A stretch of DNA of 20,000 nucleotides. It comes from Bilabrum cf. latius. Taxonomy: Eukaryota. The stretch is from contig OZ237736.1 of assembly GCA_965178125.1 (NCBI GenBank), positions 1,722,788 through 1,742,787 of the forward strand, read 5' to 3'. Position 1 is the stretch's first letter, and each line of letters opens with the position of its first letter. The position numbers and the translations under genes were made by a program. The notes beneath the pieces were generated by a model, which saw only the letters and a list, made by a program, of their open reading frames with translations, made no database searches and was not told the origin of the DNA. Of the stretch, positions 2-20,000 are shown in pieces.

Positions 2-3000
2 GATCGACTAAGCGACGTGCAGGGCACACCGGCATTCCAACCGCCGGAGATTTTCACGATGGAGCGGGGGTCTGGCAACACGTACAGTGGGTTTGCATTT
101 GACATGTGGTCGGCAGGGGCAACCCTATATTCGCTTGTGTTCGGGCGGCCCCCATTTATGGCAAAAGGCCAGGTGGCGCTGGTGGAGGCTGTCACCCATG
201 ACGAGCTGAAGATAGAGGAGAGCAAGGTGAACCCATTCTTGCGCAACTTGCTCATGGGTCTGCTTGAGAAGGACCCGTCCAAGCGCATGACGCTGCCCGG
301 CGCGATGACGCATGACTGGGTCACGCAGGAGGGGGCTGACCCTCTGATCACAGCTAGACACAAACGGTTGCGTCTCCACGACATTGCAGAAAGGTCGCGC
401 ATGGCATAGCTCGCATCGATTACCGTGCAGAAGGTGGCAGGTCCCGAGCAGCAGGTAGGCACAGCTGCCGCAGGGTCATCGAGGGCACAGTCCAAAGGTG
501 CTGGAGCGTCCGGTCGCCCAACACCTCCACCTCGAGGGCTGCGCCCGCCGCCACGTCCAACAGTGCGGATTGGCCGGTAGTCCTCCAATGAATCCACTGA
601 TACATTCGCCAGTGCTGTGCGTGGATCACCCACCACACCGACGTCGGGAACAGGCATAGGGTAGGGCCGCCCTGCAGTTGCCAGTCTCAACCTCGGGTTA
701 CGAACAGGAGATACCGCTGCACCGCCTACAACAAAGAGTGGGCAGCGCGCGAGGAGACGGAGCGTTGCTGTGGCCGGATACCGATACAACCCTATCACAC
801 CGCTGTCTGCTCGTGATGGATTCGGTGGTGGCTAGTCACTCCTGAAGGGAGCTTCTACGTCTCGCGGTGGCGGCAAGGGCTTCAATAAATGGGGATCAAA
901 GGAGGCTGCCGGTGGCAGAGGAGACGCCCCAGCATCGGGTGCAGGTGCAAGCGAGCGGCCGGGTGGGGGCCCCAGTGGTGCAGAGCTACTCGCGAAGAGT
1001 TTAACTCGAACCTAGTCTGCTCCCTACTTGCTTCCGAGCGTTCGAGAGGACCCGCTGCTCAAGTCGTAGACTGCAGTTAGTCGGCACGAGTATGAAATGA
1101 GGCAGAATCGTTTCGGCCGCCTTTGGCGCACCAAAAACCACAGCCATGCAAAGCATGGCATGCCCCACGCTGGGCATGCCAAGGGCAAACGGCGCAGCAT
1201 CTTCATCAAAAACGACGTGGAAGTCGGAATGGAGGGCGTTACGCAATCCCCCCGCATTGACCACGAGCTTCAAGTGAGGCCGGGTAGGGGCCATGGCGGC
1301 GGTGTAGATAGTGTCGGATACTCTAGCCCAGATGCTGCGGCTGGAGGTGGTGCTGGGCCTGCCACTTCAGTTTCGGGCAGCAGTGCTGGACCACGGGGCG
1401 GACGAGTGGTCGGCCTTCAGGAGAAGAAAAGGGCCGAAACTCGCCGGAAGAAGCAGCAGGAGACGCAGGCTAAGATTCGTGAGCTGTGCCGAGCAACGCA
1501 GAAAAAGAGGATGCGCCTTTTCAAGGGCTACGAGGGTCAGTTGGACAGCAAGACGCTCCAGGTGCTCATGGACCAGGGCAGGCTCCCAATCGCAGCAGAA
1601 CGTGCAGCGGCTCAAGTTGTCGACATGGAAATTTTCAGCGGTGGGGGAGGGAAAGACGATGCCAAGTCAACGGACAGTGACGCGAGTGCCAATGGCAACG
1701 CAAGCCCGCCAGGTCATGTTACAATGGAAGGACTTGGGCCAGCTTCACCTGGAGCTGGCAGTCGAAATCTGGGCGGCAGCAGCGGCCTCGGATTAAATTC
1801 TTCCTTGAAAGGCAAGCTTGGAGGCTCCGGTGAGCTCAGCAAGTCCAAGCAGGTTCTATCCCGGGCTGAGAGTGAGGCGAGACTTCACAAAGGTGGCCTC
1901 AGTCGAACGAAGGACTTTGTGATGGTCCGCCACGAAGCTGCTGCCGGAGGTGCGGATGGCGGTCGAGCAATGAAAGGAGTCGTATTCACTTCGAACACTG
2001 ATTCGCTCAGTCTTGTGGGTGGCTTGAGAAATGCGCAGCTGAACAAGAGGGGTCAGGGCTAGGACCAGCTGGGAGGCATCGGGGCAACCCATGTAGAAGC
2101 AAGCGATGAAGACTCGTCTGACGACGACGATGCCAGTCTGGACAGCGCTAGCGAATGGGCTGGCGATGGTGGCGGGCGCAAGAGCGGCATTAAGAAGAGC
2201 AGAAAGAATAGGGTCGAGTCGGGCAGCGACAGCGATTCGGACAGCGACAGCGATGGCGAGGAGATCGTCGCATTGGATGGTAATGACGATATCAACGACG
2301 TGTTTGACGAGCTAGAGGCCTACAAGCACAAGCATGACCCCTCGCTGGACGACCTATCTAAAGAGGAAGAAGCTAGGCTTGCCGTCGCTTTGGCCAGTCT
2401 GTCTGTGGACGAGATGGCAGCCACAAAAGCAGGTGAAGTACCTCGGGCAGCAGATGCTGCCAGGCGTGGGGAGCAGCTGGAAGGCGACACCGTCGAGCAA
2501 GAGAACGAAGATGACAGCGATGCTGACGACGTTCACGAAGCAGGATCTGCTGACGGCCTCCGCACTCCGCCCTTGGTGGAGAAGCAAAGTGATGACAGTA
2601 CGCCTCTCTCTCCCGCTGCGAGCAGCGACGCAGCAGTTGGATAGGAAGCAGTGAGCAGGATGTAGGCCAGCAAGGTGGAGCAGAAGCATGCCAAGCAAAG
2701 GGCGAGAGAGGCTATTCCCATGCGGACAGTGCGAAACAACTGGGGTGGTGTGGACCCTATACGAGGCCTTGTGTGGGCTGCTGCTGAGCGCTAGGGCAAA
2801 CCTGACTACATGGAAGATCGTTTCCTTGCTGTACCCACCGTGTACGATCGGCGCGATGTGGGAGGGGCACAGGAGCCAGACTGGGTCAGGGCTTGTGGTG
2901 GGGCTGCCACATTTGCTGTGTTTGACGGCCACAAAGGGGACACTGCGTCTGAGTACCTGCGACGTGGCTGGTAGCGGAAGCTGCGAGATGTGCTTGCGAG

Positions 3001-4231
3001 ACCTGAGTCTCGGCCACCATAGTTACCTCCGATGTCAGCTCGTGATAGCAGCCGTGGCGTAGATGGCGTCAGTGCAGCAACAGGTGGTGCTTTCTCCCCT
3101 CGACCGGGCGACGAGGAGGCCGCTCCCGAGCCTGACTTGCCGATTGGTGTGGCCAGCAGTGGAGACAGCATGGCAAGGGCTCTTCAAGCCGCGTGTACTG
3201 AATTGGATGGCGAGTTGCTGGCTCACTGCAAGAAATACGATGTTGGAGACGGCTCCACTGGAACTGCTGTGGTTTTTATGAGAGATCCTGCAGGTGTAGC
3301 GGGTGACGAGGCCGGTTTGCTGTCTACAGCGAAGGCTCCACTTCGAGTTTGGTGTGCAAACGTTGGAGACACTCGGGCAGTACTTAGTCGAGGTGGCATT
3401 GCTGTTGAACTCTCCAAGGACCACGGCACGGATGATCCCGAAGAGGTCGCTAGGGTACACAGCGTTGGTGGGGCGATCAAGCAGCGCAGGCTGCAAGGCA
3501 TTCTGGCTGTGACTCGAGCTTTCGGTGACATGGAGCTCAAGGTTGACTACGAGGGTCGATATGTTGAGGACCTTACGGGGCCACCACTTATTGCAATGCC
3601 GGATGTCGTGCGTCGTTCCATTGATGCGGAGCGCCCAGAGGATGAGGCCGAAGTGGTAGACGATGATGATGACCCTGATGAGTTGGATCGTGTTGGTAGG
3701 GACGCCAGGAACAGCTCCGCGTCTGCTCGGGACCAAGAGCTAGGCGTCGATCTCACGGCTGGCCGAGTAAGTAGGGGGCGTGATAGCTCTCTTAGTGGCG
3801 AGAAACTGGGTCCAACAGAGGACCGGGACGAGAGCAATTTCAACTTGCTGTCTTCAAAGGCGGGTGCATCGAAATTGACCACCGAGGACAGTCCGAGCAA
3901 GGGTGCAGGAGCAGCCATGGCATCTAGGTCTAAGGAATCGGACGGAGCAGATCGAGGCGTGCTTGACGGATGGCGCACAGCTACAGGGTCTGATGAGTTC
4001 GTCATCATAGCATGTGACGGTCTGTGGGACGTCATGAGCAGCCAGTAGGCCGTGAACTTCGTACGTCGACAGCTTGCTGAGCACGGTGACCTTGTGCGAG
4101 CTGCCAATGAGCTCGTGCAGAAATCACTTGAGCTATTCACCATCGACAACGTCACAGCAATCATCGTTGGTTTCATGAGAGAAGGTGCTGGCGAGCCTGC
4201 AGTTGCTGGCGACAGCCTGATGACCGTGTAA
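2..4231 (+). CDS. 5'-partial LKB1/CAMKK-like Ser/Thr protein kinase fused to a C-terminal PP2C (PPM) phosphatase; 1409 codons in the window, TAG read as sense
   Basis: Track ORFs 17, 1097, 2273 and 3032 share one frame. Manual translation of the gaps finds only TAG interruptions (13: 407, 578, 662, 833, 1013, 1067, 2060, 2642, 2663, 2792, 2972, 3020, 4046) and no TAA/TGA until TAA 4229-4231. Kinase C-lobe motifs: QGTPAFQPPE, DMWSAGATLY, GRPPF, KDPSKR, HDWVT. PP2C motifs: [TAG]GKPDYMEDRF, FAVFDGHKG, DGSTG, ANVGDTRAVL, LSKDH, LAVTRAFGD, DEFVIIACDGLWDVMS, DNVTAIIV. Confidence 0.93.
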
Positions 4232-4314
4232 TTGGTGCATAAGTACATCTGCTAGATTTTGTAATTTGGCTTTAGCTTAACATTCAATTAATTGTAGCGT
4301 GCTCGGCAATCTCA

Positions 4315-4346
4315 CCTAACCCCCCCTAACCTAACCCTAACCCTAA
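4315..4346 (-). repeat. Short degenerate telomeric tract (CCCTAA-type on +), inverted relative to the downstream arrays
   Basis: cctaac cccccctaac ctaaccctaa ccctaa read directly. Confidence 0.85.
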
Positions 4347-4357
4347 ATTCTCCAATC

Positions 4358-4727
4358 GCCCACCTCCATCCGCCGCCCTCTGCAGGCACCACCCACCAGC
4401 CACATCCCAAGCGCCCACCTCCATCCGCCGCCCTCTGCAGGCACCACCCACCAACCACATCCCAAGCGCCCACCTCCATCCACCGCCCTCTGCAGGCACC
4501 ACCCACCAGCCACATCCCAAGCGCCCACCTCCATCCGCCGCCCTCTGCAGGCACCACCCACCAACCACATCCCAAGCGCCCACCTCCATCCACCGCCCTC
4601 TGCAGGCACCACCCACCAGCCACATCCCAAGCGCCCACCTCCATCCGCCGCCCTCTGCAGGCACCACCCACCAGCCACATCCCAAGCGCTCGCCTCTATC
4701 CGCCGCCCTCTGCAGGCACCACCCACC
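4358..4727. repeat. Subtelomeric C-rich satellite, 55-bp unit, ~6.7 copies
   Basis: Unit gcccacctccatccgccgccctctgcaggcaccacccaccagccacatcccaagc starts at 4358, 4413 and onward with few substitutions; it abuts the telomeric array. Confidence 0.95.
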
Positions 4728-4980
4728 TTAGGGTAGATTAGGGTTAGGGTTAGGGTTAGGGTTAGGGTTAGGGTTAGGGTTAGGGTTAGGGTTAGGGTTA
4801 GGGTTAGGGTTAGGGTTAGGGTTAGGGTTAGGGTTAGGGTTAGGGTTAGGGTTAGGGTTAGGGTTAGGGTTAGGGTTAGGGTTAGGGTTAGGGTTAGGGT
4901 TAGGGTTAGGGTTAGGGTTAGGGTTAGGGTTAGGGTTAGGGTTAGGGTTAGGGTTAGGGTTAGGGTTAGGGTTAGGGTTA
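4728..4980 (+). repeat. Telomeric array 1, (TTAGGG)n, ~42 units
   Basis: Perfect hexamers except an irregular start (TTAGGG TAGA TTAGGG); ends in ...GGGTTA. Confidence 0.98.
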
Positions 4981-5013
4981 CAGTACCATCCTAGGCCAGG
5001 CCCGGGCGCCGCG

Positions 5014-5051
5014 AAAGTATCATGTTCCGCAAAAAGTATCATGTTCCGCAA
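5014..5051. repeat. 19-bp tandem direct repeat near the invariant end of the element
   Basis: aaagtatcatgttccgcaa x2, 33 bp from the telomere junction; present in all three copies. Confidence 0.9.
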
Positions 5052-6545
5052 AGACGGTGTTGCCGCGCAGTGTCCAAGTGGTCGCAAGATCGCACTGAGG
5101 CAGATCTGGGCCAGTTGCAGATATGCAAGCAGTCGACAAGAGGTGCAAGTGATTAGCAATGCATATTTGGTGTATGATTATGCTTGTCTGCTTGGTTTAC
5201 AATGAATCTCGGCCTCGGTCTCCTCGGTGGTGCTGCCCGTGGGTGACGAGCACCCAGGGGGCTGCACGGGATGGACGCCCACCCGGCGAGTCTGGACCAA
5301 ACCGCGTCGTGCAAATTGGGTTTGCCAAGGAGGTGTGCCCTGCTGTGTTTCGCCCGCGAGAATAGGGGGTTGTCTCCCCGTCGGGCAGGTGCTCCATCCA
5401 GCTCGCCCGTCCGTGACTGAGACAGCACGGGCCGCGACAAGTGCGCGAGCCCGGGGATCAAGTCAGCGGCCGATGGCAGCGAGCCGGCATGAAGCGCGTG
5501 CACGAGGAGCTTGCGCTTCCCATGCACTGCCTGCCCCACCTCATTGCGGATCTGGGACATCAGGTTCATCGTGTTGCCACACACACCTCCACACTCGACG
5601 ATCGGATCTACAGAGACACCTGTCCCGGGATGCTGCTCCTCGTCATTGGCCTGCTCCTTCTCGCCCCGGGGGCACGCGCTGCCTCGAAGCACGCACCCGC
5701 GCTCCCGCCCGACTCAAGGACTGAGTGCTGGGAGGGTGCGCGGGCAGCCGCGTGAGAGGATGACGGGCGTGCCGCCGAAGGCCGAGTCCAGGAGCTGGGG
5801 ACGGGACGCATCGTTGGGACTGCCCTGAGGAGACCAAAGAATCAACCGCCATCCGTACGGATCCCTATACGGTTGGCCGGTCTGACTCTCTGCTCGCCCA
5901 CCGCACAGATCTGCTCAGTTCCATGCAATGTTTGCCAGAAGCGGCGAGAGGGTCTCATCAGCACAGGTGGGTCCTAAAGGCTGCCTGCAATGCATAGAAA
6001 AAGAATATATCGATTGAAACTAATTAATAGCCCCTCGATGCATGGCAACATACCCGAGTGCTGCCATGAAAACCGGACAACGCACAAGCACGTTAGCAGA
6101 CCAGCGATGATCCCATACAGATGCCAGAACCTAACAGAAACACCAACAATCAATTTGAATGAATACAATAGAATCAAAATACCTGGCGGTTGTTGTACTC
6201 GGGCTATGCGGTACCTAGCTGTTCTGTCTGCAAACGCCATGGCGCGCCCCAATGAGGCGAGACCAAAAGCAGACCCACAGCAGCATGTCACCTTGAACAT
6301 ACAACGACATATGGCAGTAAGTGGTAATTAACATGAATCCCAACAGGCCTCAGTACAGTTGAGCCGGTATGTGGCGCTGAGAGGTGTGGTTGCGCCAGAA
6401 TCCGCAAACGGTCGTGAACAGCGGAACCAGCATGCGCGGCGCCGAGGACGTCCAGCAGGGCAAGCCTGTAGCAGGGTGTGCACCGGTTCACGGTACCGAT
6501 GCTTGGATGTTTGTGGGCTAGGAATCTGTTTTGTAATACACATGA

Positions 6546-6564
6546 TAGGGTTAGCCCTAACCCT
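6546..6564. repeat. Internal inverted pair of telomeric motifs (TAGGGTTAG-CCCTAACCCT)
   Basis: Read directly; repeated in copy 2 at 16995-17013. Confidence 0.8.
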
Positions 6565-6826
6565 TCAGAATCGGATGCATGGTTCATTTACTTCCATGAG
6601 AAGGGCTGACGTCCTGCATGCACTACATTAGCCCAAATACAACACACGCACATGTCGTCTTGAAACAGTGCACCTCTTTATATTACAGTGGATATAACTC
6701 ATGGCGAGAGAGGCTTGTCTGTCTGCAGTGCTGCAATGCAGCTCTTCACTGCTGCACATGCAGCTCGAGGTTCTGCAAGTTATCTGTTCTGCATAGAAAA
6801 TCACAGAACATGACACCTCACTGGCC

Positions 6827-9800
6827 TCATGTCCATTTCTCGTCAAACCCCCAGCCTTCTTGCTCAATTGCTGGGATGTGTACCCACCGTGGAGCGGTGC
6901 CAAGAAGAAGGATCTCGATTTCGCCACGTGCCCGTGAAATATCTCGCTGGCCCATACCACGCAATCCAGCGCCGGGCACTGATGGCGCCATGTTCTGGTC
7001 ACCACGAATTCCTCTAGGTCGTGACAGTGCTGAAGTCGGCGGCTGCGTGATGGCGCTGGAGGCTGCTCCCAGCGGCGGCTGCAACTCGGCAAGGCCGTCA
7101 CTACCAGCCTTGTCGGTAGGCATCTGCAGCAATCGACCGATTGGATCATCATCGCTGCCAGCCCCACTGGATGCTGATTCCGAGGCAGGCCTCAATGGTT
7201 CCGATGCCCTGCTGCCGATCGCAGTTCGGTTGAATGCGTTGGCCTCCGTTCGTTCTGCGGGACTCGAGCTCGCATGCTCGCCGGATTGCCGCATGTGCCT
7301 TGATCGCTTCTATTGCCCTTCTTCCTCATCGCTCTCATGGCCGGGCCAAATATGTCCCAACGAATCTAGGCTATGCTCAAGAGCAGAAGTAGTGGTGGAT
7401 GCCTGTGACAGGATGCTGTCGCCATCGTCAAGAGGACGAGCACGTGTGTACATCCGAAGAACCTAGCTGCAGTGTTGCGATTGAGGTATGTGATACGCAC
7501 GCCAAAGCTCGTGCCTCTGGTCGGCACTCACGCCTGCTTCTCCTGCTTCTGCACGTGCTCGGGCCACCATGGATCGGACATCTCCCACAGCTTTCAAGCT
7601 TTGAGCTAGTGACCTGCGTACCAGCCCCTTGCCTGCTGCCTTGTAGTACGGGGCTTCTGATAGTGCAGGCACTACTGATGGACTACAGGGCAGGTTAATG
7701 CAGAGACCAGCGCCGTAGTAGCCTACATCGATGACACGACGCAGTGACCCATCCTACCTGTTCAGCGCCCCTCTGAAGACTTGAGGACAATCAAAGCCTG
7801 GGTTCATCCACTTGAAATGATCTAGCACGACAGACTCCACGTGCTGGGCAATGGTAACGGCAGGCTGGGCGGTTCTTGGTGGTGGCGAGACGTCGAGCAC
7901 TGTCTAAAGTCCAGATCGTGCAATCGACGGCTGGCCTCCCCTTGGTCGCTTCGTTCCAGGCAGAGGGGGCCGCTGCAACCGATCGGGCAGCAATACTGCA
8001 GACCCAATCACACACGCAGGTAAAAGCCACACTGATACCATACGACGAAACTGCTCGTCTGCGAGGGATGGCTGTCCGTTCTGCCTGGTGCCTACGACAG
8101 CACGAAGAATTGAAGCGACGTACGAGGTCCGGACAGATGACTCGGCAGCAAGCTTGCGTTGCATGGTCCAGGATAACGATGTTATCAACGCATAGCCTAG
8201 CTTGGAGGCCCTAGCAGATGTCGTGGTCGCCAAGTCACCCCTGAGATTCCCAGCGTTCTTAGAGCCGCGCCACATTGCGCCTGCATCTGGCCTGGGACTG
8301 AAGGCAATCTTGGATATGCACATCTGCAAGCCAACTAGTATTGCACTCCTTGAGCACCTGAGCCGAGATAGGAGCAGCCCGTACAGTGCTACAGCTAGGC
8401 TGCCCCTTGCTAGCATTCCTTTCCGTGTGCCACTGCGAAGGTGGAGCTTTGCCAGGTGCATTTGCGCAAGGTAAAGCTTCCGTAGCTGCTGCTCCATGAC
8501 TACAGCGTGGGACATGTCTGTAGACTTGGCAAAGTGCAACAATAGCCTGGACCGCTCAGGCAGTCGAGACAAAATGTCAGCCTGCACGTCAGCCCGTACC
8601 ATAGCACGAAAGCCGGTGATTCCGTTGTTCACACCGCTGATGCCCAACTGGAAGTGCTCGTCACCTTGCGTTGATACGAGTCCAGAAAGACCATACCTCT
8701 CGGAGATCCGAGAGATCTGCCATGTCATGCCCAAGCCTTCTGCCAACGCACACAGGCTCCAAGACGTTACCATGACCTCACAGACGGCAAGCACAGTCCA
8801 CGAGTTCAAGAACGTACCGTTGCACCCCCCAGCCCTGACTGACTACACCGCATTTCCGATTTGATCAATGATGGCGGATGCAACCGCCATTACATTAGAC
8901 TGCTCAGGCATACTGCTAGCAGATTGCAAACAGTCACGGACGCTGGACCACTCCAGTGTCGAAGGCCCTAAGTTTCGAAGAACTGGCCTAGTAGCGGGAA
9001 GCCACGTTACGGCAATTTGCTCTGCAACAACCTGAGACCATGCATCTGTCCGTAGAGCCACGCAGCCTTCCATACAGCATCTGCTCATCGATGCAGCTAG
9101 CGCCCACATCGCCGATCGCTGATACGTGGGAATCCTGTCTGCACCACAGACAGCTGCTACGAGCAGTCTTTCGATTCTGCAAAGTGCCCGACGGAGTGTA
9201 TACCTGAGCATTTCCAAGTGATTCATGATGGATGTCTTCTTCACGACCTCCACGAAGCATTGCGAGAATGGAGCCACTGACAAATGCTCGATAGTGTCGG
9301 CGCGATGTTCACTCCGTAACTGTCCGTACTGCAGTTCAGCTGGTAGCACTACGGAGGCCAGCATCAGACTCATGGTTGACGCGGGTACATCGAACTCGCC
9401 CCTGGTCGATCCAAGGATTCCTGCAGTTAGCCTTGCATAGCTTTGAGTGAATGCCGTTTGCAGCCCAAGGTATATCCGCCGGCGGGTTGGCAGTGCATCC
9501 AGAGCTGCCTAGGCTCGAATCATGCTTGCAGTTCTCGAACTCAAAGTCGATGGAGCATGTGCATCCGATTCAGCGAAGTGGCGAACCTTAGAGAGAACTC
9601 GTCGGCGAAACTGGTCATATGCAGAGTCGTGCGCCCCTGGACTAGGCTGAAATGCTCGGAATGCTCCAGGCTGGTACAAATGCAGCTGAGATGACAGCAT
9701 GCAGCCAAGTGACATAAATGAAGGCATGCCGTAGTCGTTGCCAGTGTCATTCTCGGCTAAAACACGTCGGTGCACGGAAAGCACGTCACCCCAGGATAGC

Positions 9801-12800
9801 GTAGCTGGAAGCATTCCTTGGAAGGTTCCGGCGTACTCTCCAACGGACGCCAGCGCCGCATATGGACGAATTCGCTCTTGCATCACGGCATACCGTGCGT
9901 GTTCGAGCCGTGTTCCGTGTATGACTCCTCGCAGCAACTGATCCCGACAGCTATGCATGTACTGAACTGTTGCTGGGTTTGGTACAGCAACTGACACTGA
10001 GCGTTCACCACACACCTCAAAGCCTACGCCAAAACTGCAGTACATGGCCATATCCGCATCCTGTTGCGGCCACAGCTGTCCGTACGGATGAATTATGGCT
10101 GCGAGATCTCTCATACCTCGGCGTTGATGACGTCCAGTCCAAGCAGGTGCTCGCGCCGCGCCGCGGTACAGCTGTTCCCGAGCACTGCGTGTCAGTGTTT
10201 TCCTGCTCACCTTCCTGTTTGTAGCGCCTGACGCCGATCGCTTGCCATCTCCTGTTGGACCAAACCATTCACCTCTGCGGCCTCTGGCAAACTCCTCATC
10301 GCTCTCATCCATTGCGATCTCCCGAGCACGTTCTTCTTCTGCCTGCTGGGCAGCCAAGTCTTCATGAGCTTTGCGAAGCTGTCCCTGTGCTGCCTGTTGC
10401 AAGAGAGACATAGGATTGCATGCTTTGCAGCCCACTCGCTAGGCGTAGAACACGGAGCACCTGGCTATCTGTCTCATCAGCAGTATCATGAGGAAGCAGT
10501 TGTAGTGTGATACTAAGTGCAGATGATCAAGTAAAGAGTCGTGACTCAAAGACCACTCGTAGGAGCTGCTGTGCTATGCTTCATCATTCTCCACGCCACG
10601 TTGCTTAGCGAAGTCGTCGTCCTCATCCACGTCCACGTCGGTGTCGTCTGAATCGCTCTGCGCAGCAGCACCACCGCTTATTCCCACGCCTTCATTCTGC
10701 TGAGCCTCGTCAGAATCAGAGTCAGAGTCACTCAACTAGTCAACGGCTGGGTAGCCAAGCCACCGTACCCAATGAAATGCGCACGAAAGCAACCGGGATG
10801 GGCTTCTGTGCAGGGTGTGAGAGCCAGGCCAGAATCTACTTGTCTGTGGACCAGGTCCACTCCCAGCGTGTGCGAGCGACGAATGGTATCCACCGGCTTG
10901 GCCTCCACCACGTTGGACACGTACCACTAGCTCTGGACCTAGCCAGTCGAGCCTGCTGGCAGCAGCCGTGAGCCCGCAGCCGAAGACGTACAGCACACAG
11001 CTTCGGATCACATCCACATGGGAGCCCTGGGTCCAGAAGCCTTCATGCATACTCATTTCTACAACACCCTCAGTATCAAGCGTTTGCTGCAAGGACTGAG
11101 ACGGAGGTTCGAACGAGTCTATCAGGTCACGGCAAAGATCAAGCAATCCACTAGGTACAAGAATAGATACCGTAGCAGCACCAACATCGAAAAGTTGAAC
11201 GTGGATGTCAGCAGCGAGTCCGCGCAGTATACGAAGCGTTGGCAATTTCGACGATTGATCGTTTGCGTTTTCTGCTTGCGTGCTGACAGCCCTACTCCAC
11301 AAGGTTCCAGAATGCGGCACCACTGAAGCCCACCCTTCCCTTGCAGCCTTGTCGACATCACGATGGAACTATCGGGTGCACTCCTACTCAATTAGTTTGC
11401 TATACTTGGTAACATCAGACAAGGCCCCGGCAGCCAACACCCGGATGCTTGAGCCACCAAGTCCATTCGGACACTTCTGCTGCAGATCGGTCACCTTGGA
11501 TCGTAAGCTATCAATCTGCTCTTGGTCGCAACGACGCTCAGCCCACAGCATCGCAGTTTGCTAGTCTTTGAAAACGTCATCCCCGTCATCAAGGAATGCT
11601 GTCCATGATATGCGCATTGATCCGCCGGCAGGCGGCCGCTGTGCGTGCGGGGCGCGAACTACCACGCCAGTTGAGGGTGATTGAGACAAGCTGGTATACG
11701 ACGGAAGCAGCGAATCTGAGTCATGTACACCTAGAACGCCATCTGTGATCCAGTCCAGCAGTGCATGGTCCGATCCATCAAGCCCCAGTGGGCTTGCCAA
11801 CGTGTGAGGCAGAAAGTGGTTCGAAGTCTCGTCTGCACTGGATCCATTGAGGTCTGCGACAGCTCCAAGAACAGTGAACCCATCTAAATCAAATGCAGAA
11901 TCGCTGTGACAAGACAGCGGTACGTTTCTGGAACCTGGTGCAGACTTGAACGCTCTATATATCGCAGGCTGGTCCGGAATTGTGCTGTCCATTGATCTTC
12001 GCGGAGAGGCCGAGCTTGACAGGCCTCGGCTTGCACTCGGAGTGACGGGCTAGCTGGATGTTCGACTCTCTTTGACAGCGACTTTCTTCCTTGCTGCGGC
12101 ACGAGATCCTTGCCTTCGGACGGCGGGCAATGGAGCGAACCCAAGGCACATGCCTGCCAAGAAGTCCAGGGGGGATGACAGGTGCTGTAGAGGTCCAGAC
12201 TCCGTTTCTGGTTGGGACATCTGATCGAGCGAGCTGCCAGTGGCCTAGCTGGCACCACGAGAACTACTGCTGTGGCTGCTTGCGGCGCCTGACGACTGTC
12301 GACGGCGGCTTGGCGAGCTGCCAGTGGCCTAGCTGGCACCACGAGAACTACTGCTGTGGCTGCTTGCGGCGCCTGACGACTGTCGACGGCGGCTTGGCGA
12401 GCTGCCAGTGGCCTAGCTGGCACCACGAGAACTACTGCTGTGGCTGCTTGCGGCGCCTGACGACTGTCGACGGCGGCTTGGCGAGCTGCCAGTGGCCTAG
12501 CTGGCACCACGAGAACTACTGCTGGGGCTGCTTGCGGCGCCTGACGACTGTCGACGGCGGCTTGGCGAGCTGCCAGTGGCCTAGCTGGCACCACGAGAAC
12601 TACTGCTGGGGCTGCTTGCGGCGCCTGACGACTGTCGACGGCGGCTTGGCGAGCTGCCAGTGGCCTAGCTGGCACCACGAGAACTACTGCTGTGGCTGCT
12701 TGCGGCGCCTGACGACTGTCGACGGCGGCTTGGCGAGCTGCCAGTGGCCTAGCTGGCACCACGAGAACTACTGCTGGGGCTGCTTGCGCCTCGTGACGAT

Positions 12801-13505
12801 CGTGCACGAGTAGCCGTTTCAGGAAGTTCGAATCCCCGCATCTCACTGTGTGCTCCTGACATCTCTGCTCGGGCAGCGAGAGCAGCTTGGGCAGGCAGAT
12901 ATCCAGTTGGCGCGTACTAGCAGCAATCAACCAGCGATACGTATGTATGCAGATCTGACTCCTTAATCAAGTCGTCAATTAATTGTTTGTGAAATATTTC
13001 TGCATCAGCGCTGGGTGTATCGTAGACCGTGAGAAGATCGGCCAGCATGCCATTTTCGATGACATCGCTTGAGACTCCAAGTTCTCGAAGGCACTCCTAA
13101 ATCTCTTCGACTTCGATGCCATCCATCTGCGATATAATAAACTGAAGTTCAATATACTGCGGTTGCTGCTGAGATGTACTCCTATTATCCCAACTGTAGC
13201 TCTGGCTTACTTCAGCTGGCGGATTCGGCTGCTGGGGATCGAAAGTGCGGATCATCTCTAATTTCTCTTCGGATATCTGCGTAACAATGCAACATAAGTA
13301 TGTATTGAGCTGTCTGCGGCGGATAGCAAATCAATACTGCCCATATACTCCACATAGAACTCACTGGAACGTGCTACCAAAACAGAGCTCGACGATTCAT
13401 TGCTCGCTGCAATCTTTTGAGTACTTTGTGCATAGATTGCATCTAGCGTGTATCATCTAAGACTTTACATGCATCGTCAATGGAACACAAGGTTTCGTCA
13501 GACAT
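6827..13505 (-). CDS. Large hypothetical protein (~2,196 aa with the proposed first exon; main exon 13276..6827), TAG read as sense
   Basis: Track ORFs ending at 11561, 10736, 9509, 8843, 7904, 7463 and 6827 share one frame. Manual translation from 13330 down to 6830 finds 22 TAG and no TAA/TGA; the frame ends at TGA 6827-6829 (...GWGFDEKWT*). Proposed exon 1 is 13505..13365 (MSDETLCSIDDACKVLDDTRqMQSMHKVLKRLQRAMNRRALFWqHVP; q = TAG). Contains Ser-rich repeats and acidic tracts; no family recognised. Confidence 0.85.
12229..12788 (-). repeat. Coding tandem repeat, 84-bp unit (28 aa, Ser/Arg/Gly-rich), ~6.7 copies
   Basis: In the long ORF frame the unit encodes S[P/H]SSSSRGASqATGSSPSRRRQSSGAAS with one in-frame TAG per unit; units differ at essentially one base (tgtgg/tgggg). 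Confidence 0.95.
13277..13364 (-). other. Putative 88-nt spliceosomal intron in the large ORF
   Basis: On - strand: donor CCA|GTGAGT and acceptor ttgcattgttacgcag|ATA. The phase-0 join removes the TGA at 13331-13333 and links to an ATG-initiated 47-codon exon. An alternative in-phase acceptor exists at 13310. Confidence 0.6.
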
Positions 13506-13716
13506 CTTTAGGCCGGTTCTGGCGCAAGCAATACTCAACGGAATATTGTGCGCGTCCCCCTCGTGGGGGGCGAGTGCCACCAGTGGGGGGTGCGTGCGGC
13601 GCCGCGCTCGACGGCGGAACACAGTATCTCAAACTGCAAGTGGTCTCGAACATCAAGATTTTTTTGTTTGCTTGCTGGCATTTTGTTTCTCTTCTGCCAG
13701 GCAGTGTGAAAAATAT
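13506..13716. promoter_or_regulatory. Putative bidirectional promoter / 5' UTR region between divergent genes
   Basis: ~210 bp between ATG 13505 (-) and ATG 13717 (+); GC-rich core at ~13548-13618 and a T-rich tract ending in CAG at 13700. Confidence 0.45.
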
Positions 13717-14664
13717 ATGTCAGACCATGCATCACCGTGGGCATTGCTTGGATTGAAGCCTGTAGACTTCGCAACGGAAAATCTCGCAATCCGCCGAGGC
13801 TTGTGTATCGCAGCTTGCGGCATATCGGTTGAAACCGTGCGGTGCATCTTTTAGGATGGTGCCTATGTATCTGCGCGATAGCGTACATCACTTCATAGTG
13901 TAATGCAGCGTATTTGTGCGACAGATGACGGCAAAGTGCTGCGTGTCGACCCAAGCTTCTTGCTTGCGGAAACAGGCCAAAGACACTTGCGTTATGCTAT
14001 CAATAGTATTAAAGAGAAGTCTGACGACGCAATCAGACGTGCCATGATGAAACTGGCTCCACAGAATGGGTTGGCGTTGCATGGAACCGGCAAGCACGCA
14101 CCAAGCTCGTCGAAGCACGTCGAAAAGATGGCATGTGCTACTGCAGCTGAAGACGACACTGCAAATACTCAAAAGGGCTCATACCTGAGATCATCTGCCT
14201 CTGGGTGTGCAAGATCGGAATCGAAAGGCAATGTTGGCTCAGGCTCCAGCCAGTAGCACCGGCGTGCACGGCGGGGCTAGTCCAAGGTCCACGGCCAGAA
14301 GATGCCGACTCAAGCCCAAGTATACTCGTGGCAAGAGGCAGTACTGCATCTGCGAACGCTCTGTGACGCATGCGAGCAGAAGGCTCACCTGACCGGAGCG
14401 GAAGCTCGCAGCTTGGTCAGATTGGCTAGCAGCAGCATCGAACCAGCTCTCGGGCGTCTAATGCAACTGGCGCGCGCAGACAAGTCTAAGAGGTCTGTGC
14501 CACTTAAGCGGACTGCTACAGCGAGAACGAGCCTATCGCGTACACCCGTCGAGTTGCCCAAAAGGAGGAGAGGGGAGAAAAGGAAATTGCTCGCTGGGGA
14601 TGCGACGCCATCGAAAAGGTGTAGGAGCATCCCTGGTGCAGTTTCGTTTCTTTCAGGGAAGTAA
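13717..14664 (+). CDS. Hypothetical basic protein (~315 aa), TAG read as sense
   Basis: Track ORFs 13480, 13903 and 14302 share one frame, separated only by TAG (13852, 13879, 14254, 14278); ends at TAA 14662-14664. Start is uncertain (ATG 13480 or 13717). The C-terminus has NLS-like basic clusters (PKRRRGEKRK, PSKRCR). Confidence 0.7.
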
Positions 14665-14759
14665 ATACTAGGTCAATACAGGTGGGCACTCGCCATCTCA
14701 CTTCTATATCCACCCAACACTCCCCCCTCCTAACTTCCAGCCAAATTGGCACCACGGCG

Positions 14760-14905
14760 CCATCCATCGCCCGCACAAACAACCTCCTTGCCCCGGCACA
14801 GCCACCATGGCCCCCATCCATCGCCCGCACACCCACCCTCCTTGCCCCGGCACAGCCACCATGGCCCCCATCCATCGCCCGCACACCCAACCTCCTTGCC
14901 CCGGC
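14760..14905. repeat. C-rich satellite, 54-bp unit, ~2.7 copies, at the distal end of element copy 1
   Basis: Unit ccatccatcgcccgcacacccaccctccttgccccggcacagccaccatggccc at 14760, 14814 and 14868; the last unit is cut by the telomeric array. Confidence 0.92.
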
Positions 14906-15429
14906 TAGGGTTAGGGTTAGGGTTAGGGTTAGGGTTAGGGTTAGGGTTAGGGTTAGGGTTAGGGTTAGGGTTAGGGTTAGGGTTAGGGTTAGGGTTAGGG
15001 TTAGGGTTAGGGTTAGGGTTAGGGTTAGGGTTAGGGTTAGGGTTAGGGTTAGGGTTAGGGTTAGGGTTAGGGTTAGGGTTAGGGTTAGGGTTAGGGTTAG
15101 GGTTAGGGTTAGGGTTAGGGTTAGGGTTAGGGTTAGGGTTAGGGTTAGGGTTAGGGTTAGGGTTAGGGTTAGGGTTAGGGTTAGGGTTAGGGTTAGGGTT
15201 AGGGTTAGGGTTAGGGTTAGGGTTAGGGTTAGGGTTAGGGTTAGGGTTAGGGTTAGGGTTAGGGTTAGGGTTAGGGTTAGGGTTAGGGTTAGGGTTAGGG
15301 TTAGGGTTAGGGTTAGGGTTAGGGTTAGGGTTAGGGTTAGGGTTAGGGTTAGGGTTAGGGTTAGGGTTAGGGTTAGGGTTAGGGTTAGGGTTAGGGTTAG
15401 GGTTAGGGTTAGGGTTAGGGTTAGGGTTA
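14906..15429 (+). repeat. Telomeric array 2, (TTAGGG)n, ~87 units
   Basis: Perfect hexamer array ending in ...GGGTTA. Confidence 0.98.
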
Positions 15430-18146
15430 CAGTACCATCCTAGGCCAGGCCCGGGCGCCGCGAAAGTATCATGTTCCGCAAAAAGTATCATGTTCCGCAA
15501 AGACGGTGTTGCCGCGCAGTGTCCAAGTGGTCGCAAGATCGCACTGAGGCAGATCTGGGCCAGTTGCAGATATGCAAGCAGTCGACAAGAGGTGCAAGTG
15601 ATTAGCAATGCATATTTGGTGTATGATTATGCTTGTCTGCTTGGTTTACAATGAATCTCGGCCTCGGTCTCCTCGGTGGTGCTGCCCGTGGGTGACGAGC
15701 ACCCAGGGGGCTGCACGGGATGGACGCCCACCCGGCGAGTCTGGACCAAACCGCGTCGTGCAAATTGGGTTTGCCAAGGAGGTGTGCCCTGCTGTGTTTC
15801 GCCCGCGAGAATAGGGGGTTGTCTCCCCGTCGGGCAGGTGCTCCATCCAGCTCGCCCGTCCGTGACTGAGACAGCACGGGCCGCGACAAGTGCGCGAGCC
15901 CGGGGATCAAGTCAGCGGCCGATGGCAGCGAGCCGGCATGAAGCGCGTGCACGAGGAGCTTGCGCTTCCCATGCACTGCCTGCCCCACCTCATTGCGGAT
16001 CTGGGACATCAGGTTCATCGTGTTGCCACACACACCTCCACACTCGACGATCGGATCTACAGAGACACCTGTCCCGGGATGCTGCTCCTCGTCATTGGCC
16101 TGCTCCTTCTCGCCCCGGGGGCACGCGCTGCCTCGAAGCACGCACCCGCGCTCCCGCCCGACTCAAGGACTGAGTGCTGGGAGGGTGCGCGGGCAGCCGC
16201 GTGAGAGGATGACGGGCGTGCCGCCGAAGGCCGAGTCCAGGAGCTGGGGACGGGACGCATCGTTGGGACTGCCCTGAGGAGACCAAAGAATCAACCGCCA
16301 TCCGTACGGATCCCTATACGGTTGGCCGGTCTGACTCTCTGCTCGCCCACCGCACAGATCTGCTCAGTTCCATGCAATGTTTGCCAGAAGCGGCGAGAGG
16401 GTCTCATCAGCACAGGTGGGTCCTAAAGGCTGCCTGCAATGCATAGAAAAAGAATATATCGATTGAAACTAATTAATAGCCCCTCGATGCATGGCAACAT
16501 ACCCGAGTGCTGCCATGAAAACCGGACAACGCACAAGCACGTTAGCAGACCAGCGATGATCCCATACAGATGCCAGAACCTAACAGAAACACCAACAATC
16601 AATTTGAATGAATACAATAGAATCAAAATACCTGGCGGTTGTTGTACTCGGGCTATGCGGTACCTAGCTGTTCTGTCTGCAAACGCCATGGCGCGCCCCA
16701 ATGAGGCGAGACCAAAAGCAGACCCACAGCAGCATGTCACCTTGAACATACAACGACATATGGCAGTAAGTGGTAATTAACATGAATCCCAACAGGCCTC
16801 AGTACAGTTGAGCCGGTATGTGGCGCTGAGAGGTGTGGTTGCGCCAGAATCCGCAAACGGTCGTGAACAGCGGAACCAGCATGCGCGGCGCCGAGGACGT
16901 CCAGCAGGGCAAGCCTGTAGCAGGGTGTGCACCGGTTCACGGTACCGATGCTTGGATGTTTGTGGGCTAGGAATCTGTTTTGTAATACACATGATAGGGT
17001 TAGCCCTAACCCTTCAGAATCGGATGCATGGTTCATTTACTTCCATGAGAAGGGCTGACGTCCTGCATGCACTACATTAGCCCAAATACAACACACGCAC
17101 ATGTCGTCTTGAAACAGTGCACCTCTTTATATTACAGTGGATATAACTCATGGCGAGAGAGGCTTGTCTGTCTGCAGTGCTGCAATGCAGCTCTTCACTG
17201 CTGCACATGCAGCTCGAGGTTCTGCAAGTTATCTGTTCTGCATAGAAAATCACAGAACATGACACCTCACTGGCCTCATGTCCATTTCTCGTCAAACCCC
17301 CAGCCTTCTTGCTCAATTGCTGGGATGTGTACCCACCGTGGAGCGGTGCCAAGAAGAAGGATCTCGATTTCGCCACGTGCCCGTGAAATATCTCGCTGGC
17401 CCATACCACGCAATCCAGCGCCGGGCACTGATGGCGCCATGTTCTGGTCACCACGAATTCCTCTAGGTCGTGACAGTGCTGAAGTCGGCGGCTGCGTGAT
17501 GGCGCTGGAGGCTGCTCCCAGCGGCGGCTGCAACTCGGCAAGGCCGTCACTACCAGCCTTGTCGGTAGGCATCTGCAGCAATCGACCGATTGGATCATCA
17601 TCGCTGCCAGCCCCACTGGATGCTGATTCCGAGGCAGGCCTCAATGGTTCCGATGCCCTGCTGCCGATCGCAGTTCGGTTGAATGCGTTGGCCTCCGTTC
17701 GTTCTGCGGGACTCGAGCTCGCATGCTCGCCGGATTGCCGCATGTGCCTTGATCGCTTCTATTGCCCTTCTTCCTCATCGCTCTCATGGCCGGGCCAAAT
17801 ATGTCCCAACGAATCTAGGCTATGCTCAAGAGCAGAAGTAGTGGTGGATGCCTGTGACAGGATGCTGTCGCCATCGTCAAGAGGACGAGCACGTGTGTAC
17901 ATCCGAAGAACCTAGCTGCAGTGTTGCGATTGAGGTATGTGATACGCACGCCAAAGCTCGTGCCTCTGGTCGGCACTCACGCCTGCTTCTCCTGCTTCTG
18001 CACGTGCTCGGGCCACCATGGATCGGACATCTCCCACAGCTTTCAAGCTTTGAGCTAGTGACCTGCGTACCAGCCCCTTGCCTGCTGCCTTGTAGTACGG
18101 GGCTTCTGATAGTGCAGGCACTACTGATGGACTACAGGGCAGGTTA
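15430..18146 (-). mobile_element. Telomere-associated element, copy 2 (truncated, ~2.7 kb)
   Basis: Matches 4981-7697 (ORF track identical at offset 10449), then switches into telomeric repeats at the shared GGTTA. Confidence 0.92.
17276..18146 (-). pseudogene. 3' fragment (~290 codons) of the large hypothetical gene, lacking its 5' part
   Basis: Corresponds to 6827-7697; cut at ...GLCI|NLPCS by telomeric repeats. Confidence 0.85.
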
Positions 18147-18488
18147 GGGTTAGGGTTAGGGTTAGGGTTAGGGTTAGGGTTAGGGTTAGGGTTAGGGTTA
18201 GGGTTAGGGTTAGGGTTAGGGTTAGGGTTAGGGTTAGGGTTAGGGTTAGGGTTAGGGTTAGGGTTAGGGTTAGGGTTAGGGTTAGGGTTAGGGTTAGGGT
18301 TAGGGTTAGGGTTAGGGTTAGGGTTAGGGTTAGGGTTAGGGTTAGGGTTAGGGTTAGGGTTAGGGTTAGGGTTAGGGTTAGGGTTAGGGTTAGGGTTAGG
18401 GTTAGGGTTAGGGTTAGGGTTAGGGTTAGGGTTAGGGTTAGGGTTAGGGTTAGGGTTAGGGTTAGGGTTAGGGTTAGGGTTAGGGTTA
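18142..18488 (+). repeat. Telomeric array 3, (TTAGGG)n, ~58 units
   Basis: Perfect hexamer array ending in ...GGGTTA. Confidence 0.98.
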
Positions 18489-20000
18489 CAGTACCATCCT
18501 AGGCCAGGCCCGGGCGCCGCGAAAGTATCATGTTCCGCAAAAAGTATCATGTTCCGCAAAGACGGTGTTGCCGCGCAGTGTCCAAGTGGTCGCAAGATCG
18601 CACTGAGGCAGATCTGGGCCAGTTGCAGATATGCAAGCAGTCGACAAGAGGTGCAAGTGATTAGCAATGCATATTTGGTGTATGATTATGCTTGTCTGCT
18701 TGGTTTACAATGAATCTCGGCCTCGATCTCGGCCTCGGTCTCCTCGGTGGTGCTGCCCGTGGGTGACGAGCACCCAGGGGGCTGCACGGGATGGACGCCC
18801 ACCCGGCGAGTCTGGACCAAACCGCGTCGTGCAAATTGGGTTTGCCAAGGAGGTGTGCCCTGCTGTGTTTCGCCCGCGAGAATAGGGGGTTGTCTCCCCG
18901 TCGGGCAGGTGCTCCATCCAGCTCGCCCGTCCGTGACTGAGACAGCACGGGCCGCGACAAGTGCGCGAGCCCGGGGATCAAGTCAGCGGCCGATGGCAGC
19001 GAGCCGGCATGAAGCGCGTGCACGAGGAGCTTGCGCTTCCCATGCACTGCCTGCCCCACCTCATTGCGGATCTGGGACATCAGGTTCATCGTGTTGCCAC
19101 ACACACCTCCACACTCGACGATCGGATCTACAGAGACACCTGTCCCGGGATGCTGCTCCTCGTCATTGGCCTGCTCCTTCTCGCCCCGGGGGCACGCGCT
19201 GCCTCGAAGCACGCACCCGCGCTCCCGCCCGACTCAAGGACTGAGTGCTGGGAGGGTGCGCGGGCAGCCGCGTGAGAGGATGACGGGCGTGCCGCCGAAG
19301 GCCGAGTCCAGGAGCTGGGGACGGGACGCATCGTTGGGACTGCCCTGAGGAGACCAAAGAATCAACCGCCATCCGTACGGATCCCTATACGGTTGGCCGG
19401 TCTGACTCTCTGCTCGCCCACCGCACAGATCTGCTCAGTTCCATGCAATGTTTGCCAGAAGCGGCGAGAGGGTCTCATCAGCACAGGTGGGTCCTAAAGG
19501 CTGCCTGCAATGCATAGAAAAAGAATATATCGATTGAAACTAATTAATAGCCCCTCGATGCATGGCAACATACCCGAGTGCTGCCATGAAAACCGGACAA
19601 CGCACAAGCACGTTAGCAGACCAGCGATGATCCCATACAGATGCCAGAACCTAACAGAAACACCAACAATCAATTTGAATGAATACAATAGAATCAAAAT
19701 ACCTGGCGGTTGTTGTACTCGGGCTATGCGGTACCTAGCTGTTCTGTCTGCAAACGCCATGGCGCGCCCCAATGAGGCGAGACCAAAAGCAGACCCACAG
19801 CAGCATGTCACCTTGAACATACAACGACATATGGCAGTAAGTGGTAATTAACATGAATCCCAACAGGCCTCAGTACAGTTGAGCCGGTATGTGGCGCTGA
19901 GAGGTGTGGTTGCGCCAGAATCCGCAAACGGTCGTGAACAGCGGAACCAGCATGCGCGGCGCCGAGGACGTCCAGCAGGGCAAGCCTGTAGCAGGGTGTG
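18489..20000 (-). mobile_element. Telomere-associated element, copy 3 (runs off the window)
   Basis: Same junction GGGTTA|CAGTACC; matches 4981 to ~6480 apart from a 12-bp duplication at 18714-18737. Confidence 0.92.

Follow-up and report, generated by a model that had tools for sequence, protein, structure and literature searches.

UAA and UAG nearly always change their meaning jointly, so that the cases in which UAG alone has changed are natural experiments on how eRF1 and transfer RNAs (tRNAs) discriminate between the two codons. Few such lineages are listed in the portions of the literature covered here, namely Iotanema, a rhizarian, Scotinosphaera, Protocruzia and some phyllopharyngeans. 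In Iotanema spirale (Fornicata), the nuclear code reads UAG as Gln and retains UAA and UGA as stops, according to passages in Panek et al. 2017 (PMC5304391) and PMC9161772, and published excerpts describe its eRF1 as carrying a GTS-to-GGS change. A section of PMC11687900 names Protocruzia tuzeti and two phyllopharyngean lineages as ciliates in which only UAG has become Gln. UAG stands for Leu in the rhizarian exLh and in some phyllopharyngeans, and for Ser in Scotinosphaera (passages in PMC5304391 and PMC11687900). Amoeboaphelidium protococcarum is cited in parts of PMC6299283, PMC5304391 and PMC11687900 as using both TAG and TAA for Gln, and excerpts from the literature add hexamitids and many ciliates as further users of stop-to-Gln codes at both UAR codons (UAA and UAG). 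All three stops are contextually translated in Amoebophrya sp. ex Karlodinium veneficum, as stated in a part of PMC12005148. Here we analyse the meaning of TAG in a 20,000-nt stretch of contig OZ237736.1, which we call the window.

We consider it very likely, from the comparisons below, that nuclear genes of the window use UAG for Gln and end at UAA or UGA, a code that matches NCBI table 15. With the standard code, the longest open reading frame (ORF) in the window has at most 348 aa. When TAG is allowed to be a residue, three long frames appear:

2-4231, plus strand: gene A frame, 1,409 codons, open at the window edge, with 13 in-frame TAG and the stop TAA at 4229-4231.
6827-13255, minus strand: gene B frame, 2,142 codons, with 22 in-frame TAG and the stop TGA at 6827-6829.
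13417-14664, plus strand: gene C frame from stop to stop, 415 codons, with 5 TAG (4 of them after the ATG at 13717) and the stop TAA at 14662-14664.

These frames contain 40 TAG and no internal TAA or TGA in 3,966 in-frame codons. The unselected expectation was computed from the remaining five frames of each stretch, and codon counts exclude each frame's closing stop. For gene A, 5.0 TAA, 26.2 TGA and 12.0 TAG are expected, and 0, 0 and 13 are observed (the Poisson probability of finding no TAA and no TGA is 3e-14). The corresponding values are 7.4, 41.6 and 23.8 expected and 0, 0 and 22 observed for gene B (5e-22), and 2.4, 6.4 and 3.6 expected and 0, 0 and 5 observed for gene C (1.5e-4). Over the three frames, about 15 TAA and about 74 TGA are thus expected from unselected frames, and none was observed. 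Mononucleotide shuffles never produced a sequence free of both codons (0 of 2,000 for each frame). A chance origin of the three frames is excluded. By contrast, the in-frame frequency of TAG equals the neutral expectation, with no depletion. It makes up 1.0% of codons and, if counted as Gln, 20% of Gln codons (40 TAG, 55 CAA and 102 CAG). Given that TAA and TGA are absent in frame and TAG stays at its neutral level, selection acts on TAA and TGA as fully as expected of stops and does not act on TAG.

Conserved context for individual TAG codons comes from gene A, which is truncated at its 5′ end by the window edge. The remaining sequence codes for a protein kinase domain (C-terminal part only), then a long disordered linker, then a PP2C phosphatase domain. 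Pfam models match both domains (PF00481, PP2C, E 3.1e-39, 135.6 bits vs a cut-off of 20.3; PF00069, protein kinase, C-terminal part, E 1e-13). The sequences MED, DGH, GD.R, DGLWD and DN, which we take to be the named metal-binding motifs of PP2C, share one frame only when the TAG codons at 2792 and 4046 are read through. Because the metal-binding motifs flank these two codons, a complete enzyme requires that both be translated. The TAG at 2792 lies at PP2C motif 1, in ‘AAERqGKPDYMEDRF’ (q marks the TAG), and the TAG at 4046 lies between DGLWD and DN, in ‘DGLWDVMSSQqAVNFV’ and upstream of ‘IDNVTAIIV’. A reading of the window made before this analysis from its letters alone (the sequence-only reading) had placed both codons exactly there. 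Its counts of TAG (13 in gene A, 22 in gene B including 7 in a tandem repeat, and 4 in 13717-14664) and its terminal codons TAA, TGA and TAA were likewise reproduced in full.

Scanning metagenome contigs with gene A yielded a single locus, L001, of 5,886 nt, which carries a 59%-identical orthologue. Two genes of this contig are relevant here:

L001 1842-5885, plus strand: gene A orthologue, 1,348 codons, with 12 TAG, 0 TAA and 0 TGA (P 5e-17).
L001 1136-1672, minus strand: AP-4 sigma gene in two exons, with a TGA stop at 145 aa.

Since the long L001 frame has TAG and neither TAA nor TGA, the pattern of the window recurs in a second organism. The L001 orthologue is complete and begins with MGCGQS, a possible N-myristoylation site. 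Its kinase is preceded by what we take to be a cyclic-nucleotide-binding domain, within which TAG427 occurs in ‘IVHqGDHGDSFYII’, apparently at the usually conserved Gln of ‘..QGD.GD.FYII’.

Homologues of gene A bear on which amino acid TAG specifies. When proteins were searched with the PP2C part, two near relatives emerged, P0004 (93% identical; its cluster mate P0233 is 92% identical) and P0005 (64%, BLASTP). Other matches are distant, and the best named ones are from plants, fungi and the stramenopile Triparma laevis (P0010, a kinase-PP2C fusion). Individual TAG codons of gene A compare as follows:

407-409, plus strand: TAG residue 136; also TAG in the L001 orthologue (SRMAqLA / SRMAqMA).
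578-580, plus strand: TAG residue 193; opposite a CAG-Gln in L001.
1013-1015, plus strand: TAG residue 338, in ‘SLTRTqSAPYLLPS’; also TAG in L001, with 10 of 10 flanking residues identical.
2663-2665, plus strand: TAG residue 888; opposite Gln in P0005.
2792-2794, plus strand: TAG residue 931, directly before ‘G..xxMED’; Gln in P0005 and P0006, V in P0007 and K in P0008.
2972-2974, plus strand: TAG residue 991; Gln in P0005 and H in P0008.
4046-4048, plus strand: TAG residue 1349, in ‘DGLWDVMSSQqAVNFVRR’; Gln in 6 of the 6 closest homologues.

Taking the closest relative at each alignable site, TAG faces Gln at 8 of 17 sites (193, 888, 931, 991 and 1349 in the window, 798 and 1248 in L001, and 1784 in gene B). 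No other residue was seen more than twice among the 17, and two additional sites are TAG in both organisms. The homologues that have Gln at TAG1349 are P0004, P0233, P0006, P0007, P0008 and P0010, the last being the T. laevis protein, a named protein of a standard-code organism. When the window is compared with L001 at sites where at least 6 of 10 flanking residues are identical, all four pairs are TAG/CAA, TAG/CAG or TAG/TAG. For example, a TAG of L001 is opposite a window CAA in ‘GTPAFQPPE’ (9 of 10 flanking residues identical), and another is opposite a window CAG in ‘QEETQAKIREL’ (8 of 10). In poorly conserved parts of the same codon alignment, the partners of TAG are G, S, R and I. Further sites of gene A compared with P0005 are TAG881, opposite P, and TAG1007, opposite V. 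In gene B, TAG1784 is opposite Q, TAG1471 opposite H (A in the distant P0219), TAG894 opposite E and TAG1834 opposite P.

We also examined a wide alignment of 88 PP2C matches. The column of TAG931 holds 72 non-gap residues, of which Gln is the commonest (Q 14, I 13, K 12, R 9) and E is absent. E leads the column of TAG1349 (E 25, Q 20, D 15). Gln is the one residue enriched in both. The residue comparisons taken together are a small sample, drawn in part from relatives that share the code, and they fit Gln and no other single residue.

Related proteins in public data also begin or end at positions of interest. P0004 and P0233 start immediately past the position of TAG1007, P0213 terminates just before TAG1834 of gene B and P0221 just before TAG939 of gene B, while P0005 breaks off in the middle of the PP2C domain, precisely at window CAG-Gln 1161. 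We infer that these ends of standard-code ORFs would correspond to TAG codons in the DNA of the relatives.

As regards the other two stop codons, the frames of the window and L001 together have 0 TAA and 0 TGA in 5,314 in-frame codons, where about 103 TGA are expected. The four gene ends seen use TAA, TGA, TAA and TGA (genes A, B, C and the AP-4 sigma gene of L001, respectively). Two of the four coincide with the ends of homologues. The TAA of gene A is at the same residue as the ends of P0004 and P0233, and P0006 and P0007 end within about 5-12 residues of it. The TGA of the AP-4 sigma gene closes a protein of 145 aa, and its homologues are 143-145 aa long.

We call TAG a sense codon because of the stop statistics, the frames that continue through kinase and PP2C motifs, and the orthologues that exchange TAG with CAG or CAA. 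On this point the sequence-only reading holds up, given unbroken frames across TAG inside conserved motifs and the recurrence of the pattern in L001. Its further proposals also agree with our results: that TAA and TGA remain stops fits their absence from 5,314 codons and their use at four of four gene ends, and that TAG means Gln fits the 8 of 17 alignable sites and the TAG/CAG and TAG/CAA pairs in near-invariant context.

Several observations weigh against our interpretation. L001 and P0005, which give the best orthologue comparisons, probably share the code, and so they test synonymy and are not an outside reference. The remaining nine alignable sites face S, R, I, P, V, G, H, E and P, all of them non-Gln and in poorly conserved context. 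The wide PP2C alignment has more E than Q in the TAG1349 column, and I and K are close behind Q at TAG931. The finding that TAG ends 0 of 4 genes is not significant at n=4, and TAG could end some genes. Genes B and C are lineage-specific, and the subtelomeric block that holds them is repeated. Of the three frames, that of gene C is the weakest, and its guanine-cytosine (GC) content has no codon-position periodicity. A tRNA scan of the 20-kb window and the 5.9-kb L001 found no tRNA gene.

One alternative is an ambiguous code of the type seen in Condylostoma, karyorelicts, Blastocrithidia and Amoebophrya sp. ex K. veneficum, with UAG encoding Gln within genes and also serving as a context-dependent terminator. 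Such codes exist, as a part of PMC12005148 documents, and the gene ends available here are just four. However, none of these ends is TAG, in-frame TAG is not depleted relative to neutral frequency, and the known ambiguous codes show all three stops or both UAR codons in frame, whereas TAA and TGA are never in frame here. We regard an ambiguous code as unlikely. The joint reassignment of UAA and UAG that is usual according to passages in PMC5304391 would instead favor a code of the NCBI table 6 type, in which both UAR codons are Gln, TAA is rare because the DNA is GC-rich, and TGA is the sole true stop. The two TAA-ended frames of the window could in principle continue to a later stop. Yet synonymous codons ending in A are frequent (CAA:CAG 0.54, GAA:GAG 0.67, AAA:AAG 0.49), and by the CAA:CAG ratio a Gln meaning of TAA would predict about 22 in-frame TAA in the window. 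None is seen there or in the full set of 5,314 codons, and the TAA of gene A falls where homologues end, which makes this code very improbable.

There is a similarly slim chance that TAG is a sense codon for some other residue, such as Glu, Lys, Leu, Ser or Tyr. The lead of E over Q at TAG1349 (25 vs 20), the nearness of K and I to Q at TAG931, and the gene B sites opposite E and H would fit such a reading. It is opposed by the absence of E from the TAG931 column, by the lack of any non-Gln residue seen more than twice in 17 sites, by the TAG/CAG and TAG/CAA pairs in near-invariant context and by the Gln of all six close homologues at TAG1349. Finally, the TAG codons might not be translated at all, because the genes are decaying subtelomeric pseudogenes or because of splicing, RNA editing or assembly errors. 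The repeated subtelomeric location and the lack of known domains in genes B and C are in keeping with this idea, but pseudogenes would acquire TAA and TGA as well, and none is present in 3,966 codons. Moreover, TAG codons lie inside conserved motifs with frame and alignment continuous on both sides, which leaves no space for introns or frameshifts, and two of them are conserved between orthologues that are 59% identical. The sequence 2-4231 is present with 0 differences in contigs from four public runs of three studies, some of which could be the window's own source, and an assembly error is therefore unlikely. These contigs are long, DNA-like and without joints, and are uninformative on splicing, editing or expression. 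We consider untranslated TAG codons to be extremely improbable.

If UAG is Gln and UAA and UGA are terminators, two changes would account for the code. A tRNA-Gln with the anticodon CUA would decode UAG without reading UAA, as other reassignments suggest (passages in PMC5304391 and PMC9161772). In addition, eRF1 would have lost recognition of UAG and kept that of UAA and UGA, as proposed for Iotanema spirale. An Rfam scan of the window gave no match.

At least two further organisms have the trait. One is the source of L001, and those from which P0005, P0213 and P0221 come probably have it too. Given that several organisms have it, the reassignment looks clade-wide and not recent. An independent origin of a UAG-only reassignment is plausible here. 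A broader proposal is that the window, L001 and the sources of P0005, P0213 and P0221, whose orthologues are 59-93% identical, belong to an undescribed clade of GC-rich protists, probably affiliated with SAR (stramenopiles, alveolates and rhizarians), in which UAG became Gln in an old, clade-wide and independent event. We think that the chances of this proposal being correct are about even.

A further lineage of this kind would supply an independent replicate for testing recurrent changes in eRF1. The lineage is GC-rich, has several divergent members and is represented by genomic DNA in public archives, and its telomere type argues against a ciliate. There is also a practical consequence. Gene callers that use the standard code split the genes into fragments in public protein data (P0004, P0005 and P0213-P0223), and annotation therefore needs table 15.

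The affiliation with SAR is suggested by the AP-4 sigma protein of L001. Its best named matches are from the stramenopiles Cafeteria, Hondaea, Pythium, Phytophthora and Globisporangium at 72-74% identity, and the alveolates Alphamonas (Alphamonas edax) and Perkinsus and a record labelled Symbiodinium match in the same range. Identities to named stramenopiles and alveolates are flat, at 65-74%. In a FastTree analysis of 103 AP-4 sigma sequences, L001 falls among unnamed sequences with weak support. The protein thus leans towards SAR, which proves little and concerns the organism of L001, not that of the window. The AP-4 sigma gene has an intron of 102 nt (GT..AG) that contains TAA, TAG and TGA. 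The gene and its intron show that spliceosomal introns occur in the lineage and that it has kept the AP-4 complex.

Neither gene B nor gene C matched any family in a Pfam scan. Relatives of gene B are limited to 11 matches among 1.84 billion representative proteins, all of them short fragments (43-364 aa) with identities of 59-88%, apart from one at about 35%. Searches of genome contigs and viral contigs found no relatives. These data indicate that gene B is a lineage-specific gene, the relatives of which appear to have been fragmented by standard-code gene callers. It contains a tandem repeat:

12229-12799, minus strand: near-perfect 84-nt (28-aa, Ser/Arg-rich) tandem repeat in gene B, 6.8 copies, 98% matching.

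Each unit of this repeat has one TAG, for a total of 7, which leaves 16 independent TAG sites in gene B. Because every unit has a TAG, the repeat expanded after in-frame TAG was already tolerated. Genes B (minus strand) and C (plus strand) diverge from a spacer of about 460 bp (13256-13716) that lies in the kilobase with the lowest GC of the window (0.49). This arrangement suggests that the spacer is a promoter region common to both genes.

The window is a subtelomeric piece of a GC-rich nuclear chromosome. Both the GC-richness (0.49-0.62 per kb) and the TTAGGG arrays had been pointed out from the sequence alone and are borne out. The repeated elements are arranged as follows:

4352-4727: C-rich minisatellite with a 55-nt unit, 6.8 copies, following gene A and directly proximal to the first TTAGGG array.
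4738-4980, plus strand: (TTAGGG)40 interstitial telomere-type array.
4981-7697: copy 1 of a 2,717-nt unit, the right-hand 870 nt of which are the 3′ end of gene B.
14760-14905: C-rich minisatellite with a 54-nt unit, 2.7 copies, after gene C and directly proximal to the second TTAGGG array.
14906-15429, plus strand: (TTAGGG)87 array.
15430-18146: copy 2 of the unit, identical to copy 1 over 2,717 nt.
18142-18488, plus strand: (TTAGGG)58 array.
18489-20000: copy 3 of the unit, cut by the window end and about 99% identical to copies 1 and 2.

All three internal TTAGGG arrays are in the terminal orientation, and each is followed by one copy of the 2.7-kb unit. Copy 2 stops inside the gene B sequence at ...CAGGGCAGGTTA, which is joined directly to GGGTTAGGG, whereas copy 1 runs on into gene B (18135-18150 vs 7686-7700). 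The end of copy 2 looks like a break in gene B that was healed when a telomere was added de novo at a GGTTA microhomology; amplification would have followed. Short-read contigs of the public runs end within the minisatellite. A Pfam search with four ORFs of the 2.7-kb unit found no family. The ORF at 14746-15654 has a KRTAP match, which we rejected as spurious since the ORF translates the minisatellite and the TTAGGG array. In subtelomeres of the yeast Y′ type, tandem units are separated by internal tracts of telomere repeats. The window resembles these in its tandem copies of a subtelomeric unit with internal telomere tracts in terminal orientation. It differs in that its unit has no helicase or Pfam domain and in that telomere repeats cap the truncated gene B at the end of copy 2.

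Among the known codes, NCBI table 15 (‘Blepharisma nuclei; some phages’) reads the window frames as we do. The likeness to Iotanema spirale is that UAG alone is reassigned, to Gln, in a non-ciliate eukaryote, and the same mechanism involving a tRNA-Gln with the anticodon CUA and eRF1 would be expected. The AP-4 sigma and kinase-PP2C homologues found here lean weakly to stramenopiles and alveolates, however, and not to metamonads. Ciliate telomeres are of the T2G4 or T4G4 type; the window differs in its long TTAGGG arrays, and it also places several genes of multi-kb size on a single molecule. We found no report of a UAG-only change to Gln in a GC-rich, stramenopile or other non-ciliate SAR organism in full-text literature, a weak negative as subscription journals and supplements are thinly covered there.

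Amoeboaphelidium is likewise a non-ciliate with a stop-to-Gln reassignment. We rejected an affiliation with it since its genomes have 40.5% and 39.9% GC (PMC10608142, Table 1) vs about 57% here. In addition, TAA is never in frame here, and there is no close PP2C match in NCBI, although Amoeboaphelidium proteins (KAI accessions, PMC10608142) are present there. Amoebophrya sp. ex Karlodinium veneficum is similar in being a protist of the SAR group in which in-frame UAG is probably Gln, but a code of its type was rejected given that TAA and TGA are never in frame here. In exLh and Scotinosphaera, UAG has likewise changed and UAA is still a stop, but the residue is Leu or Ser, as opposed to Gln here. 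The code itself is already known as table 15, and the novelty may lie in the lineage, with at least two or three divergent members. If its origin is indeed independent and clade-wide, it would be the second case outside ciliates in which UAG alone has become Gln, and its long-read DNA would open the suppressor tRNA and eRF1 to study.

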